A stretch of DNA of 64,000 bases from Fidelibacterota bacterium (GTDB taxonomy: Bacteria; Pseudomonadota; Alphaproteobacteria; Rhodospirillales; Rhodospirillaceae), in assembly GCA_947476895.1 (NCBI GenBank), contig CANJRX010000001.1, forward strand, positions 184,865 to 248,864. The letters are read 5' to 3'. The notes beneath the pieces were generated by a model. That model had not been told where the DNA came from and ran no database searches. It saw nothing but the letters and a program-made list of their open reading frames with translations. Positions 10,873 to 44,832 of the stretch are shown one piece after another; position 1 is the stretch's first letter; each line of letters opens with the position of its first letter. The position numbers were made by a program, and so were the translations under genes.

Positions 10873-10972
10873 GGAGGCACCCTCGTTAAAGTTGGTGCCC
10901 AGGCGCGCGGCGGTTATCTCAGCTGCGCTTCCCGATGGTCATCCATCTATGCGCCAGTCACGCAGCGCCGTT
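10873..10972 (-). promoter_or_regulatory. ZTP (pfl-motif) riboswitch in the purH 5' leader
   Basis: The minus-strand RNA reads GGCGCUGCG-UGACUGGCG-C..GAUGGaugaCCAUC-GGGAAG-CGCAGC-linker-CCGCCGCGCGCCUGGGCA. This contains the conserved GACUGGCG (10959-10952) and CGCCUGGGCA (10905-10896) blocks with a closing P1 helix. GGGCACC can alternatively pair with GGUGCCU next to the SD/AUG. Confidence 0.8.
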
Positions 10973-37193: not shown

Positions 37194-37547
37194 ATAGTCC
37201 CCACATTTAGGCCAAGCTTTGGGATGCGGAGTATAGCTGTTGATTTCGCGCCCACAAGCGGGGCACAAGCCGGACGGTGGAAGGGCCAAATATTAACTGT
37301 GCGGAGATAATCTCAGTATAAGATAACCCGCAAAATCGGGCATAAATGAGCCCACCTTCGAGGGGATAAGACGGGTTTGGACTCCGACAAGCCAGACATC
37401 CAGAAAACCGAAAGCGGGAGCGGCGCTGATTCGCCGCGCATCGATTTTTCGCAAAGTGCGCGCCGGGGCGATATTCGTCCGCCTCTAAGGCCGTTCAGCG
37501 CCAAGCGTAAATCGCAGGTCAATCCGTTCTTCCAAGTTGCGTCACAG

Positions 37548-37607
37548 CTAAAAAATTCAGAGCCAAAAATTTCTGAACCTAAAATTTCCGAGCCAAAAAT
37601 TTCAAAG
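37548..37607. repeat. Imperfect tandem repeat, 4 x 15 bp
   Basis: Units: ctaaaaaattcagag / ccaaaaatttctgaa / cctaaaatttccgag / ccaaaaatttcaaag. The array ends 16 nt upstream of the bactofilin ATG. Confidence 0.9.
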
Positions 37608-37622
37608 AGCAGGGGAGCTTCC

Positions 37623-38054
37623 ATGTCGGACAGATTCAACACGGACCGTATGGCCGCCTTTACGCCGCAAGTTCAAAAGCGCGTGGCGGACATCCCAAAC
37701 CTGACGGCGGTGCGCTCACCCGAAGCCGACCTTGAAGGCAAGCGTCTGGTCATCGGCAAACAGGTTCGCATGAGCGGCGAAATCGCCGGCTGCGAGAAGT
37801 TGGTGGTTGAAGGCACGGTTGAAGCCTCTATCAGTGAAGTGAAATCCATTGAAGTGACCGCCAACGGGACCTTCAAGGGCAACGCCGAAGTGGAAAATGC
37901 CGTGATCGCCGGCACTTATGAAGGCAGCTTGAAAGTGAACGGTCACCTTGAGATTGCCGCCTCAGGCGTGGTGAAGGGCGGCGTAAGTTATAGGACCATC
38001 GCCGTCGCCAACGGCGGTAAGCTGCTCGGGTCCATCGAGACCATTGAGGGTTAG
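37623..38054 (+). CDS. Bactofilin-family cytoskeletal protein
   Basis: ATG at 37623 preceded by AGGGGAG. Beta-helical repeat pattern (GEIAGCEKLVVEGTVEASI...IEVTANGTFKGNAEVENAVIAGTYEGSLKVNGHLEI...). Confidence 0.8.
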   Translation: MSDRFNTDRMAAFTPQVQKRVADIPNLTAVRSPEADLEGKRLVIGKQVRMSGEIAGCEKLVVEGTVEASISEVKSIEVTANGTFKGNAEVENAVIAGTYEGSLKVNGHLEIAASGVVKGGVSYRTIAVANGGKLLGSIETIEG

Positions 38055-38988: not shown

Positions 38989-39786
38989 TCAGCCCAGGCC
39001 CAACACATCGCGCATAGAGTAAAGACCCGGCGCTTTGCCTTTGGCCCAGAGAGCGGCACGCACTGCGCCTCGCGCGAAGATCTCGCGTGACGAGGCTTTG
39101 TGTGTGATTTCGATGCGTTCGCCGTCGGCGGCGAAGACAACGATGTGATCGCCGACCACATCGCCACCGCGTAGAGTCGCGAAGCCGATCTCGCCAGCCG
39201 GACGCGCGCCGACCTGGCCGTCGCGAGTGCGGCGAGCCACATCGTTCAAATTCACTTTGCGGCCTTTGGCAGCTGCTTCACCCAAACCCAGCGCGGTGCC
39301 AGAGGGTGAGTCCACCTTGTGACGATGATGCATCTCGACAATCTCGATGTCGTAGTCGTTGCCCAAAGTGGCGGCGATTTTTTCGGTGAGCGCCAAAAGC
39401 ACATTGACGCCGACGCTCATATTGGGCGCCTGCACGATCACGGTTTTTTTGGCGGCGGCTGCGAGCGCAGCGCGCACATCATCGCCAATGCCGGTGGTGC
39501 CGACGATGAGCGCCTTGCCCATGGAAGCGGCGAGCTCCGCATGCGCTTTGGTCGCGGCGGGTACGGTGAAATCGATGATGGCATCGCTGGCTGCAAACAG
39601 CGCGCGGGAATCAGTACCCACAGTAATGCGCACCGGCTTCGCGCCGACCAGCGTGCCCAGGTCCTGGCCTACGGCGGGGCCGGTCGGCTCAACGCCACCC
39701 GCCAGCTCAGCGCCGGCGGTGGCCAGCACTTCCTGGATGAGCATGCGGCCCATACGGCCCGCACATCCAACAATTCCGATTTTCAT
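38989..39786 (-). CDS. dapB: 4-hydroxy-tetrahydrodipicolinate reductase
   Basis: ATG at 39786 (MKIGIVGCAGRMGRMLI...). E(M)HHRHKVDSPSGTA motif. The 300-aa ORF's N-terminal extension is not coding. Confidence 0.9.
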   Translation of the reverse strand: MKIGIVGCAGRMGRMLIQEVLATAGAELAGGVEPTGPAVGQDLGTLVGAKPVRITVGTDSRALFAASDAIIDFTVPAATKAHAELAASMGKALIVGTTGIGDDVRAALAAAAKKTVIVQAPNMSVGVNVLLALTEKIAATLGNDYDIEIVEMHHRHKVDSPSGTALGLGEAAAKGRKVNLNDVARRTRDGQVGARPAGEIGFATLRGGDVVGDHIVVFAADGERIEITHKASSREIFARGAVRAALWAKGKAPGLYSMRDVLGLG

Positions 39787-39853
39787 AAGCCACCTTCGAT
39801 AGCATTCGTAGTCGGCGTAGCATTCAACGTGAACGCACTTTAGGCCCTCACCG

Positions 39854-40516
39854 TCACTCGTCAAGATCAGCGGCGGGATCGTCGCCAACATCTCCGATGA
39901 GCTGACGCTCTATTATTCTTTCCACTCGCGGGTCAGCAATTATGAACCGATATGCCGGCTGCCCTCCTAGTTCGCTATTTGGCGCCAAGGTTCCGCTTTG
40001 TTTTACGAGTCCAGCATCTTCCCAGTTTTTGATTTTTACTCGCGCGCTCTGATCGCCGATTTTGAAAGCGCCCTGAACATCTTTGTTGACGAAGGCATCG
40101 CATCCAAGGCGGTAAACTTGTTGGAGCAACTTATCTGGAAAAAAGCCTCCAATTGTTTCCACCACATACTTGTCTTGTCCCAGTTCAACCGATTCCGCAT
40201 CGAGGAGGTCGGGCGCGGAGTTACCGCGGGCATCATGTTCCCTAATAACAGTGTCCATTAGTTTTATAAGTTCGCGAGGAGAGTTTGTCGCAATAGATAT
40301 AAAAGATTTAAAGGCTGCATCGGCATCTACGCCATCCGCAAATATATCCTTGAAAGACACCCGGCCTTCCGAAAAATATTGAAGACGCGCATCCAACATC
40401 TGTCTCAACCCCTCGCCATTCCAAGTGATGTTGGCGTGCGCGAGCTTATCAAGGCGTACGGCATATTTGTCAGACTGAAAGTGGTCCACACCTTGCTCCA
40501 CAAGAATAACACCCAA
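39854..40516 (-). CDS. C-terminal portion of the island NTPase (AAA+ lid with sensor-2-like NSPRE plus winged-helix-like domain), or a separate 181-aa gene if started at ATG 40399
   Basis: Low-GC ORF that overlaps the upstream ORF by 112 nt in the -1 frame. It contains ...RLDKLAHANITWNGEGLRQMLDARL... and ...ATNSPRELIKLMDTVI... (AAA+ lid-like). The tail ...KIGDQSARVKIKNWEDAGLVKQSG...AYRF looks like a wHTH. The TTG start at 40516 follows TAG immediately. Confidence 0.55.
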   Translation of the reverse strand: MGVILVEQGVDHFQSDKYAVRLDKLAHANITWNGEGLRQMLDARLQYFSEGRVSFKDIFADGVDADAAFKSFISIATNSPRELIKLMDTVIREHDARGNSAPDLLDAESVELGQDKYVVETIGGFFPDKLLQQVYRLGCDAFVNKDVQGAFKIGDQSARVKIKNWEDAGLVKQSGTLAPNSELGGQPAYRFIIADPRVERIIERQLIGDVGDDPAADLDE

Positions 40517-41397
40517 CTAAAGTTGGGTATCTCTAAAAGCTGAACATGAGACAGCAGGGGATGAATAAGTTTTGTGGTTGCCTCTGAAGAGTTAGAAGTG
40601 GCGGGTGTTTCATCTACCTTGTCTACGAGAACCGCAACTCCTGAGAATCCAAAAGATTTCACAAATTCGACGAGCTTACTGAGAATTGCGCGAGGCGCAT
40701 TTGGCGCATCCCCTGTAAGAGATTTCAGTAATGCTTCGGCAGGTCCCGAAATATCAACGGAGTCGTTAAGGGTCTTTTTAGACAGCGCAGCGACAACGCC
40801 AGCCAAAATCTTGCTCAACGCATCCCATCGCTTGCCGGCCCAAATAGCGCTTTTTGTCATCCACGCGCTGTTAAGGAGACGTAAGGCATCGGTCGTTGAA
40901 ATTTCACGATCCATTTCAGGGACCGTTAAGTAAAAGCCCTTCACAAGCGCCAACGCGAGTGTTCGCTCTCCTTCGTCCAGTCCCTCAATGAAGATATTTC
41001 GGTCACCCTCCTCTAGAGAGGAAAGCCAAACTAAAATTTGTTCCACAACACAGAATGCGACAATACCTACCAATTCTCGCTCGGTAAGTTTGCCCGTTTT
41101 AAATGCTGTTTGGATTGAAGAATAGTCAGTCAGATTAATTGCAAACGGATGAGGTCCGCCAAACGCAGCACCGGCAATGTTTTTCCAAACCTCTCCGTAA
41201 ACCGTTAAGCGCGTAGCGCTTTTTCCTGCACCCCGATCGCCAAAGAGAATGAAGGAAGTTAGACCCCTAACTCTGTCTGATATTGCCTGAAGATATGGCG
41301 GGCGGACTGCGTAACTGACAATATTTGGCTCGGTTTCGGCCGTATAATGTTCGAACGGATTGCCGCGTAGTTTTAATGTCTCGACTAGCGTGCGCAT
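40405..41397 (-). CDS. Orphan P-loop NTPase (N-terminal portion: Walker A and Walker B), KAP/STAND/ORC-like, family unassigned
   Basis: ATG at 41397 lies 20 nt after the dnaJ stop, with GAGGGTGGGGA upstream. Walker A GDRGAGKS (aa 53-60). Helical insert of ~195 aa. Walker B AVLVDKVDE (aa 255-263). The last ~35 aa (WVLFLWSKVWTTFSLTNMPYALISSRTPTSLGMARG) look like out-of-frame sequence. Confidence 0.6.
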   Translation of the reverse strand: MRTLVETLKLRGNPFEHYTAETEPNIVSYAVRPPYLQAISDRVRGLTSFILFGDRGAGKSATRLTVYGEVWKNIAGAAFGGPHPFAINLTDYSSIQTAFKTGKLTERELVGIVAFCVVEQILVWLSSLEEGDRNIFIEGLDEGERTLALALVKGFYLTVPEMDREISTTDALRLLNSAWMTKSAIWAGKRWDALSKILAGVVAALSKKTLNDSVDISGPAEALLKSLTGDAPNAPRAILSKLVEFVKSFGFSGVAVLVDKVDETPATSNSSEATTKLIHPLLSHVQLLEIPNFSWVLFLWSKVWTTFSLTNMPYALISSRTPTSLGMARG

Positions 41398-41417
41398 CGT
41401 TCCCCACCCTCGCAAAT

Positions 41418-42572
41418 CTATTTTTCTGCCCTAGCCGCTCCAGCAATGAATTCCTTCACCTTGCCCAAGAAGCTAGAGCATTCAGGGCTGTAGGTGGCGG
41501 CTTCGCCGTCCTTCTCGAACTCTTCCATCAGCTTGCGCTGTTTGTCGGTGAGGTTCACGGGCACTTCGATTGCCGCTTCCAGGAACATGTCGCCGCGTGC
41601 TGTGGAGCGCAGCACGCTCATGCCCTTGCTCTTCAGGCGGAAGCGGTGGCCGTTCTGGCAGCCTTTGGGAATTTGAACTTTGACTTTGCTGCCGTCGATG
41701 ACCGGCATTTCCACTTCCGCGCCCAGCACGGCCGCGGTCATGGAGATGGGCATGCGCATGAAGAGGTTAGCGCCGTCGCGCTGGAACATGCGGTGCGGCG
41801 TGATGGCCAAGAAAATGTAGAGATCGCCCGCAGGTGCGCCGTGCATGCCGGCTTCGCCTTCGCCGGCGAGGCGGATGCGTGTGCCTTCTTCGACGCCCGG
41901 CGGAATGGTGACGTCGAGGCTTTTTTCTTTGCGCGTGCGGCCTGCACCGCTGCACTTCGGACAGGGATCGGTGATGACTTTGCCGCCGCCGTGGCAGGTG
42001 GGGCAAACGCGCTCGACGGTGAAGAAGCCCTGCTGGCTGCGAATTTTGCCCGCACCTTTACAGCCCGGACAGGTGGAGGGCGCCGCGCCGTCTTTCGCGC
42101 CGGAGCCTTTGCACTTTTCGCAGGCGACCGATGATGGAATCGTGACCGAAGCTTTCTTGCCGTTGAAGGCTTCTTCCAGCGTGATTTCCATGTTGTAGCG
42201 CAAGTCTTGGCCGCGCGCCGGACCGCCCCGACCACCACCGCCGCGCCGGCCCATCATGTCGCCGAACATTTCGTCGAAGATGTCGGCAAAGCCCGCGCCG
42301 AAATCGAAACCAAAGCCACCCGCACCGCCGCCGTTGCCTTGCTCGAAGGCCGCATGGCCATAGCGATCGTAAGCCGCGCGCTTTTGTTCATCGCGCAGGA
42401 TGTCGTAGGCTTCACTCAGAACTTTGAATTTGTGCTCGGCTTCTTTGTTGCCGGGATTACGGTCGGGGTGAAAATCCATCGCCAGTTTGCGATAGGATTT
42501 TTTGAGATCGTCACCCGACGCCGTTTTGGCGACGCCCAGAATCTCGTAATAGCACTGCTTTACCGCGGCCAT
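41418..42572 (-). CDS. dnaJ: Molecular chaperone DnaJ
   Basis: J-domain (YYEILGV...HPDRNPG), G/F-rich region and four CxxCxGxG zinc-finger repeats. 384 aa. Confidence 0.97.
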
Positions 42573-42682: not shown

Positions 42683-44587
<1,905 letters not shown>

Positions 44588-44732: not shown

Positions 44733-44761
44733 ATATAAGGGGAGGCCTTCAGGGCTGCAAC
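44733..44761 (-). promoter_or_regulatory. Putative RpoH (sigma-32)-type promoter of dnaK
   Basis: The minus strand reads GTTG-N18-CTTATAT, against the alphaproteobacterial sigma-32 consensus CTTG-N17/18-CYTATNT. It lies about 140 nt upstream of the dnaK ATG. Confidence 0.4.
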
Positions 44762-44832
44762 GGGCCAAGCGACTCTTTCTACGATGTTTTTCAGGGGTTT
44801 CGGCAGGCCAAACCTGTCCTTAAGTACCTTTT

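Follow-up and report, generated by a model that had tools for sequence, protein, structure and literature searches.

Gene Layout and Composition of the dnaJ-dapB Interval

Between dnaJ and dapB, in a 64,000-nucleotide (nt) stretch of contig CANJRX010000001.1 that is referred to here as the window, lies a low-G+C segment carrying a gene for a P-loop ATPase. As judged from its sequence, the gene is likely to be a recently acquired and recently inactivated member of DS-41, a known family of anti-phage defence proteins. At its maximal extent, from the dnaJ stop to the dapB start, the segment spans 39787..41417 on the minus strand; these limits reflect the local minimum in G+C content and the length of the interval, which is 1631 nt here compared to a spacer of 62-215 nt in relatives. 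Upstream lie dnaK (42683..44587), recognized by its HSP70 Pfam domain, and dnaJ (41418..42572), which has the DnaJ Pfam domains and encodes a protein 90% identical to the DnaJ of a close relative designated L011. Downstream lies dapB (38989..39786), with DapB_N and DapB_C domains and 81% identity in the same relative. All four genes, dnaK, dnaJ, the ATPase gene and dapB, are on the minus strand. The dnaJ stop codon (41418-41420) is followed after 20 nt by the ATPase start codon (ATG at 41397), while the ATPase stop codon (39854-39856) precedes the dapB start codon (ATG at 39786) by 67 nt. These spacings and the shared strand had been reported in an initial annotation of the window and were correct when measured again.

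Two overlapping open reading frames (ORFs) on the minus strand occupy the interval. ORF1 begins with the ATG at 41397 and ends at a stop at 40405, encoding 330 amino acids, and ORF2, in the -1 frame relative to ORF1, stays open between 40516 and a stop at 39854. The G+C content of positions 39854-41397 is 0.484, the lowest for any window of this size in the 64-kb stretch, where the mean is 0.596 and the standard deviation 0.020. At third codon positions, the G+C content (GC3) of the ATPase ORFs is 0.46-0.47 versus 0.70-0.73 in dnaK, dnaJ and dapB. Since the segment is both the G+C minimum of the 64 kb and distinct in GC3 from the genes that flank it, the composition anomaly is real and large. 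The counts given for four 100-nt samples in the initial annotation (53, 40, 59 and 66 G+C) were exact upon recounting.

Assignment to the DS-41 Family

When the two reading frames are joined with homologues as a guide, a protein of 514 amino acids is obtained, close to the estimate of approximately 510 amino acids made earlier. Each part was identified separately by the NCBIfam model NF053860 ("DS41_1_antiphage"), with ORF1 matching model positions 2-271 at 194 bits and ORF2 matching positions 273-448 at 145 bits. The repaired protein matches positions 2-448 of the 448 in the model at 351.6 bits (E 7e-105). A broader subfamily model, NF047389 ("P-loop ATPase, Sll1717 family"), has a cut-off of 75 bits; neither fragment reaches this value by itself (49 and 31 bits), and the repaired protein exceeds it at 95.9 bits.

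DS-41 is among the systems validated by DefensePredictor (Science 2026; PMC13092281), and its homologues reach as far as Halobacteria (PMC13092281). The construct used in that study, AAA2, consists of a single E. coli gene encoding a protein of 502 amino acids (WP_033812887.1). In plaque assays it lowered the plating of several BASEL phages, for example with a negative logarithm of the efficiency of plating (-log EOP) of 3.6 for Bas63 and 2.3 for Bas19; protection from phage was thereby shown, the mechanism was not given, and only a remote, NTPase-level similarity to Avs1B was listed by the authors (PMC13092281). The E. coli gene was recovered from the IncF conjugative plasmid CP058102.1 (86180-87688), whose encoded protein agrees with the published DS-41 at 398 of 399 residues, the single difference falling at the GTG start codon. 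The repaired protein from the window is 53.3% identical to E. coli DS-41 over 503 residues (4-505 versus 3-494) and is collinear with it from end to end. Given the end-to-end profile match and the collinear identity to an experimentally validated protein, assignment of the gene to the named DS-41 family is secure. The initial annotation had considered the gene not assignable to any named family or known defence system, a view that the two NCBIfam models overturn. It had also put the gene forward as a candidate for an undescribed defence module. The placement in a defence or conflict family holds, while the module can no longer be called undescribed, since a protein that is 53% identical is already known to protect against phages (PMC13092281).

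Among 5.8 billion protein clusters, full-length homologues of approximately 500-547 amino acids were found, the best being 72% identical among the matches listed. Many of them belong to Rhizobiales, Pseudomonas and Paraburkholderia. Several are named "P-loop ATPase, Sll1717 family", as are many of the close homologues in NCBI and UniRef, a name that denotes a subfamily only. With a profile of the family, approximately 825 clusters (at 50% identity) are found at E <= 1e-10 among 1.84 billion representatives, and DS-41 is a moderately sized, widespread family. Other resources were less informative. A PADLOC search, which the initial annotation had proposed as a check, came back blank: the v2 database, which includes models for BREX and Avs and is older than DS-41, yielded zero matches at E <= 1, and it was the NCBIfam profiles that supplied the family name instead. 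In Pfam, only sub-threshold matches to AAA_16 and ORC-CDC6-like were obtained, and KAP_NTPase was not among the Pfam matches (E <= 0.1 to 1) of the repaired protein or of 44 homologues. No papers on "Sll1717" were found in the literature library that was searched.

Like the DS-41-family gene in the window, homologues examined in seven other contexts stand alone, without neighbours in common. In Sinorhizobium meliloti, the homologue is in an integrase/HNH/PIN-MazE island, in Metapseudomonas furukawaii it is between a TonB receptor gene and a LysR gene, and E. coli DS-41 itself is in the accessory region of the IncF plasmid; further homologues are found next to an insertion sequence (IS) fragment and beside an ars operon. 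Solitary placement among housekeeping genes is thus normal for DS-41. A lone NTPase on the Hsp70 operon had initially been thought unusual, a judgement that does not survive comparison with homologues that are commonly solitary among unrelated genes. As a separate matter, two of the closest homologues, with 68-71% identity, are truncated to 409 and 392 amino acids (L099:6001-7230 and L100:6001-7179). The truncations could equal further decay in the family or represent assembly indels; the contig names suggest that these are maybe long-read assemblies.

Predicted Architecture of the Repaired Protein

An AlphaFold2 model of the repaired protein, made with 45 homologues, is confident, with a predicted local distance difference test score (pLDDT) of 85 and a predicted template modelling score (pTM) of 0.80. 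The first part of the model consists of a strand (49-53), the Walker A loop with its helix, a second strand (85-89) and an all-helical block (93-247). These are followed by the Walker B strand (254-258), a strand at 293-300, the sequence RLDK (315-318) and a strand at 321-323. The final part comprises a helical lid (328-390) that includes the sequence SPRE, a helical linker, and a helix-turn-helix with a beta-hairpin (438-487).

The motifs can be placed on the minus strand of the window as follows. Walker A, GDRGAGKS (residues 53-60), is encoded at 41218..41241, and Walker B, VLVDKVDE (residues 256-263), at 40609..40632. Between the second strand and the Walker B strand lies the helical insert of approximately 155 residues (93-247; 40657..41121), as delimited by the order of elements in the model and by the fold matches to Orc1/Cdc6. 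The RLDK motif (315-318; 40445..40456) is located just before the fifth strand, and the SPRE motif (373-376; 40271..40282) is in the lid helices 359-390. The C-terminal winged helix-turn-helix (approximately 436-498; 39905..40093) is composed of helices 438-445 and 449-461 and a hairpin (465-471/482-487), and is indicated by a profile match and by fold matches as well. Invariant residues across the 45 homologues cluster in these motifs: G53, R55, G56 and G58-A61 (G58, K59, S60 and A61) at Walker A; D259, K260, D262 and E263 at Walker B; R315, D317 and K318 in RLDK, where L316 is nearly invariant; and all four residues of SPRE (S373-E376). Each of the motifs named in the initial annotation was found, namely Walker A, a long insert, Walker B, an arginine-containing segment, a sensor-2-like SPRE and a winged helix-turn-helix tail.

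When the model was compared with the Protein Data Bank (PDB) by Foldseek, the top match was the archaeal Orc1/Cdc6 protein 2qby_A (E 2.3e-6), with ORC subunits and Cdc6 at lower ranks, and then CED-4 and Apaf-1, HslU, and RuvB. The matches to Orc1/Cdc6 folds (e.g. 2qby, 1fnn, 1w5s) have E values of 2e-6 to 2e-4 with identities of 9-12% and template modelling (TM) scores of 0.3-0.5. At the level of profiles, a weak match to Pfam ORC-CDC6-like is seen in 33 of the 45 family members, the score staying below the gathering threshold (15.8 versus 27 bits), and a comparison of the family profile with PDB sequence profiles gave a weak match only, to an Lrs14-type winged-helix regulator over positions 418-505 (E 0.012). 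The protein would therefore be described as an ORC/Cdc6-like AAA+ ATPase by structural resemblance only. In comparison with the features of the ORC/Cdc6 clade of ATPases (PMC12839542), the helical insert may sit at the position of the initiator-specific motif (ISM), an insert that follows strand 2. By the same comparison, R315 of RLDK is a candidate arginine finger. R375 of SPRE is a candidate sensor 2.

Neither the profiles, the model nor the fold search detected a nuclease, protease, TIR, transmembrane or other effector domain in the repaired protein. The sole segment resembling a transmembrane span is a hydrophobic helix at 109-127 (Kyte-Doolittle 2.0), which we read as part of the soluble helical insert predicted by the model. 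In the initial annotation, the architecture had been likened to KAP, STAND and ORC NTPases. The fold matches bear out the ORC and STAND parts of the likeness; the KAP part was not borne out, there being no KAP_NTPase match and no inserted transmembrane helices in our reading of the model.

Comparison with Known Systems

The closest known counterpart is E. coli DS-41 (WP_033812887.1). Both are single genes of the same length class, and, beyond being collinear, the two proteins have in common the NPFEHYTAE motif, Walker A and Walker B, RLDK, SPRE and the C-terminal domain. They differ in that the present copy is frameshifted at codon 304, scores below the 370-bit cut-off of NF053860, and resides in an alphaproteobacterial chromosome between dnaJ and dapB rather than in a plasmid accessory region. 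Phage protection has been shown for the E. coli protein only.

Like the repaired protein, archaeal and eukaryotic Orc1/Cdc6 replication initiators have an AAA+ core to which a lid and then a C-terminal winged helix are joined, along with a helical insertion after strand 2. However, the insert here has approximately 155 residues in place of a short helix-extension-helix, and DS-41 is a patchy, mobile and bacterial family whose tested role is phage defence, not replication initiation. ORC/Cdc6- or STAND-type AAA+ proteins with a winged helix-turn-helix are also employed in defence by BREX, through BrxC and BrxD, and by Avs/AVAST (PMC12839542). Unlike these systems, which the repaired protein fails to match in PADLOC as noted above, the present gene lacks partner genes, and its product has neither a fused effector nor a repeat-type sensor domain; moreover, BrxC, at 1200-1300 amino acids, is far longer. 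KAP NTPases differ as well, as the repaired protein has one hydrophobic helix only.

A Single-Nucleotide Deletion in Codon 304

The repaired gene is divided between two frames. The N-terminal frame (codons 1-303; 40489..41397) includes the NPFEHYTAE motif, Walker A, the insert, Walker B and strand 4, and the C-terminal frame (codons 305-514 and the stop; 39854..40486), shifted by -1, includes RLDK, strand 5, the SPRE lid, the helical linker and the winged helix. This division is drawn from the two NF053860 matches and from alignments with homologues. Across the site, homologues read LFLWSKV-R/K/Q-DHFNxxKYxVRLDKL, as in LFLWSKVRDHFNSEKYxVRLDKL. In the window, the N-terminal frame reads LFLWSKV and then WTTFSL, while the C-terminal frame reads GV and then DHFQSDKYAVRLDKL; the former is valid to V303 (40489) and the latter resumes at D305 (40486). 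Since just TG (40487..40488) separates the V303 codon (GTG) from the D305 codon (GAC), codon 304 has lost 1 nt. A position of 40466-40476, taken from the envelope ends of the hidden Markov model matches, was ruled out by the homologue alignment. The two-frame split seen in the initial annotation is therefore real, and its position is now sharper.

At least 24 contigs carry the exact 330-amino-acid ORF1, every one of them with the gene order dnaJ, ORF, dapB. These contigs come from the NCBI metagenome-assembled genome (MAG) GCA_947482685.1, several ENA metagenome assemblies, and Logan assemblies. In the ten that were fetched, comprising MEGAHIT, scaffold-type and Logan assemblies and one MAG, the deletion is identical and the alignment runs ungapped through the site. 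The 3.6-kb dnaJ-dapB stretch is 99.97-100% identical among the ten contigs, which differ by at most 1 nt in 3584. An intact ORF for the whole DS-41 protein was accordingly found in none of the ten contigs examined.

Past V303, translation of ORF1 gives a tryptophan at position 304 and then an out-of-frame tail of 26 non-native residues ending in TGA (40405..40486), in DNA whose other frame specifies residues 305-331 of the ancestral protein. Just downstream of the ORF1 stop (40405-40407) is the ATG of the invariant Met334 (40397..40399), with GAGGGG ahead of it, at which translation could possibly restart to give a fragment of 181 amino acids; gene callers annotate a C-terminal ORF of this length on the Logan contigs. 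Residues 304-333, including RLDK, are missing from both possible products. The predicted N-terminal product, residues 1-303 and the tail, would keep Walker A, Walker B and the insert and lose RLDK, strand 5, the lid with R375, and the winged helix. Because a fixed frameshift removes the invariant RLDK, the lid and the winged helix from the product, the gene is most probably inactive. In the initial annotation, the frameshift had been a matter for mere conceptual repair. That treatment no longer suffices, as the deletion is fixed in every recovered copy and essential conserved parts are lost.

No slippery heptamer of the form X XXY YYZ and no A/T homopolymer is present at GTG-TG-GAC, and programmed frameshifting was rejected for this reason. 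Approximately 20 nt upstream of the frameshift is a 10-bp hairpin on the minus strand, GATACCCAAC-TTTA-GTTGGGTGTT, followed by a T-rich tract (40508-40531). It was flagged as terminator-like; it lies inside the coding sequence and may merely be coding sequence.

Insertion into an Ancient Gene Adjacency

To place the segment in context, the junction was compared among 80 loci that a DapB scan of one genome per species had returned, with DnaK, DnaJ, DapB, Nth and the ATPase located in each by tblastn. In 47 species, among them Gammaproteobacteria such as Marinobacter, dnaJ lies upstream of dapB on the same strand, and in 28 of these 47 the gap is less than 300 nt. In the nearest relatives, dnaJ and dapB are separated by 62 nt (DnaJ 90% identical), 113 nt (89%) and 215 nt (77%). 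A DS-41 homologue was found by tblastn at none of the 80 loci. The combination of unameliorated composition, absence of the gene from all 80 loci and short gaps in relatives shows a lineage-specific and fairly recent horizontal insertion into an ancient dnaJ-dapB adjacency. This agrees with the insertion proposed in the initial annotation, which had also called for the junction comparison. The comparison confirmed that the insert is absent in relatives.

Signs of a particular insertion mechanism were sought without success. Target-site duplications and terminal inverted repeats were limited to short repeats at chance level, none of them at the segment borders, where no integrase or IS was found either. 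There is no tRNA integration site in the 64-kb window, and tblastn returned no match in 50,697 phage records. Because the 67-nt spacer before dapB shows no convincing alignment by eye to the dnaJ-dapB spacer of relatives, the exact borders of the insertion are undefined within 39787-39853 and 41398-41417.

In the other 19 of the 47 species, 0.9-3.5 kb separates dnaJ from dapB, with ORFs that are LysR-, amidase-, pyrF- and cysE-like when their translations are read by eye. The notion that the junction is a defence hotspot was not supported, the ORFs of the other inserts being host-like in G+C content and ordinary-looking. One relative, L012, with 85% identity in DnaJ, has an unrelated insert of 938 nt at the same junction (L012:5063-6000). 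Its ORFs are on the opposite strand, resemble an S-adenosylmethionine-dependent methyltransferase when the translation is read by eye, and are frameshifted near a C8 run. When the gene described here is counted too, broken cargo of unrelated kinds is found at this junction in two of the five closest genomes. The MAGs of the nearest relatives L011-L014, with 92-97% identity in DnaK, bear the deposited label "Candidatus Marinimicrobia bacterium". The dnaK-dnaJ-dapB-nth region in these MAGs is alphaproteobacterial, with the next-best matches in Phaeospirillum and Thalassospira, and the deposited labels look wrong.

Expression Signals

Upstream of dnaK is a promoter-like element, (C/G)TTG..GTTGC-N17-CTTATAT (44733..44770, minus strand), marked by blocks that are invariant in four species. 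In the alignment of the window with L011, L012 and L014, the block reads GAGTCG(C/G)TTG...GTTGC-N17-CTTATATA, of which CTTATATA is invariant and has GTTGC 18 nt upstream of it, and the blocks TGGGGA and GCCGC in the 5'-untranslated region of dnaK are conserved in the same genomes. The alphaproteobacterial RpoH consensus is CTTG-N17-CYTATNT, and the element upstream of dnaK, with CTTATAT as its -10 sequence, is taken here to be a plausible heat-shock promoter of the RpoH type.

Between dnaJ and dapB, no terminator-like sites above background were found on the minus strand (15 in the scanned region versus 10.3 +/- 3.8 expected). The sole promoter-like match in this interval is a weak, sigma-70-like sequence, TTGACG-16-TAAAGT, matching at 9 of 12 positions (39837..39864, minus strand). 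Located at the insert's 3' end, with 51 nt separating it from the dapB start downstream, it offers no evidence of function, as the scanned region has 3 such matches versus 2.9 expected. The scan thus concurs with the initial annotation, which had seen neither a promoter nor a terminator belonging to the gene itself. Since there is no terminator-like site above background between dnaJ and the insert, read-through transcription from dnaKJ is plausible, as it is for dapB in relatives. The heat-shock promoter upstream of dnaK, from which the initial annotation expected the gene to be transcribed, would be a plausible source of such transcripts. For a broken gene, such read-through would be of little consequence.

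Origin and Fate of the Gene

The following sequence of events is the one that we favor as likely. A single-gene DS-41 anti-phage cassette would have been acquired horizontally by a lineage of an uncultured alphaproteobacterium, with integration into the short dnaJ-dapB spacer leaving behind no repeats that can be detected. A deletion of 1 nt in codon 304 would then have broken the reading frame, and the locus would now be a young pseudogene that is still passively transcribed with dnaKJ-dapB. As for the intact members of the family, ATP might drive oligomerization of the ORC-like module on invading DNA by way of the winged helix and the ISM-like insert, and the oligomer might in turn block phage replication or signal infection.

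Several observations weigh against this account. NF053860 is an equivalog model with a curated cut-off of 370 bits, and the repaired protein, at 351.6 bits, does not reach the threshold for an equivalog. Four intact relatives score 341.6, 348.6, 371.7 and 391.5 bits, two of the four also being below 370; because they straddle the cut-off, the near miss is a trait of the subgroup and not an effect of frameshift damage. The contigs were retrieved by exact match to the truncated ORF, and any intact alleles in the population would escape such a search, although the best intact homologue in the protein search is 72% identical at most. The deletion is the sole lesion: neither a stop nor another frameshift interrupts the 514 codons, and all residues invariant in the family are preserved. 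As no second lesion has built up, either the inactivation is recent or the pieces are still under selection. Lastly, the GAGGGG before the conserved Met334 codon resembles a Shine-Dalgarno sequence and is positioned just past the stop of ORF1, which makes a C-terminal fragment possible. The last two of these points, together with the recovery of the same allele in every contig and the lack of a terminator-like site between dnaJ and the gene, would suit a locus that still functions and is coupled to the heat-shock operon, either as a split pair of N-terminal and re-initiated C-terminal fragments or through rare ribosomal or transcriptional frameshifting. We consider this unlikely. The site has no sequence suited to slippage, a split pair would miss residues 304-333 with the invariant R315, D317 and K318, and none of 120 homologues listed is split here as a tolerated two-piece form, the full-length ones being approximately 500-547 amino acids long. 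Furthermore, the contigs are at least 99.97% identical, and fixation of the allele may reflect a single clone. A more specific version, in which a DS-41 gene captured in the dnaK-dnaJ heat-shock unit is, or was until recently, coupled to stress, with the allele active as a split pair or via rare restoration of the frame, has a very small probability. If true, the product would be a low-dose immune sensor gated by heat or proteotoxic stress.

A different objection concerns whether the lesion exists at all, as one base missing beside a G-rich context (GTG TGG GAC -> GTGTGGAC) is a difference of the basecalling type, and the organism might have an intact DS-41-family gene. That the frameshift is an artefact of sequencing or assembly is nevertheless very doubtful, given ten identical contigs from several projects and assemblers along with an NCBI MAG, contig names that suggest short-read assemblers (k141 names in the style of MEGAHIT, scaffolds, Logan), and the lack of any intact protein more than 72% identical among the 5.8 billion clusters. 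Could the gene instead be an ancestral resident of the dnaKJ-dapB unit that was lost in relatives? The borders, being free of target-site duplications, inverted repeats, integrase, IS and tRNA, would allow it. Yet the idea is hardly credible when GC3 is 0.46 versus 0.70-0.73 in the neighbours, when the gene is absent from all 47 syntenic species, including Gammaproteobacteria with directly adjacent dnaJ and dapB, and when homologues occur on plasmids and in a variety of unrelated neighbourhoods. Finally, the family may not be primarily one of defence. Its members could be ORC-like DNA-binding regulators or maintenance factors of mobile elements, and over-expression would then explain the protection in E. 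coli as a side effect. In favour of this reading, effector domains were not detected, the mechanism of DS-41 is unpublished, and archaeal Orc1-2 paralogues act as DNA-damage regulators (PMC9738581). However, protection was measured directly in plaque assays (the -log EOP values of 3.6 for Bas63 and 2.3 for Bas19; PMC13092281), and the distribution of the family is patchy and mobile, with solitary genes, islands with integrase and toxin-antitoxin genes, and the IncF accessory region all represented; a role mainly outside defence is thus quite improbable.

Significance of the Locus

Taken alone, the locus is of little importance: a defence family whose description and validation date from 2025-2026 gains one more member, alphaproteobacterial and frameshifted. 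It does illustrate that a solitary defence gene far from defence islands can be recognized from raw sequence, which is the class of gene for which DefensePredictor was built. It may also illustrate rapid turnover: the gene would have been acquired after the split from a relative with 90% identity in DnaJ, its composition has not yet drifted towards that of the host, and it appears to be broken already. The structural reading, that of an ORC/Cdc6-like ATPase with an insert of approximately 155 residues at the ISM position, a winged helix and no effector, may serve as a starting hypothesis for the mechanism of DS-41. How an ORC-like ATPase with no effector stops phages is a question for the family as a whole and is better studied on an intact member.

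Other Features of the Window

Two features elsewhere in the window are recorded here. A ZMP/ZTP riboswitch is located at 10890-10971 on the minus strand (Rfam RF01750; 58.8 bits versus a gathering score of 39) and is the sole Rfam match in the window. On the plus strand, an ORF at 37377-38054 encodes a bactofilin domain preceded by a long N-terminal extension, in which the peptide SEPKI is repeated three times in tandem. The start codon of this ORF, and hence the extension, is uncertain, and gene callers annotate 143 amino acids only.

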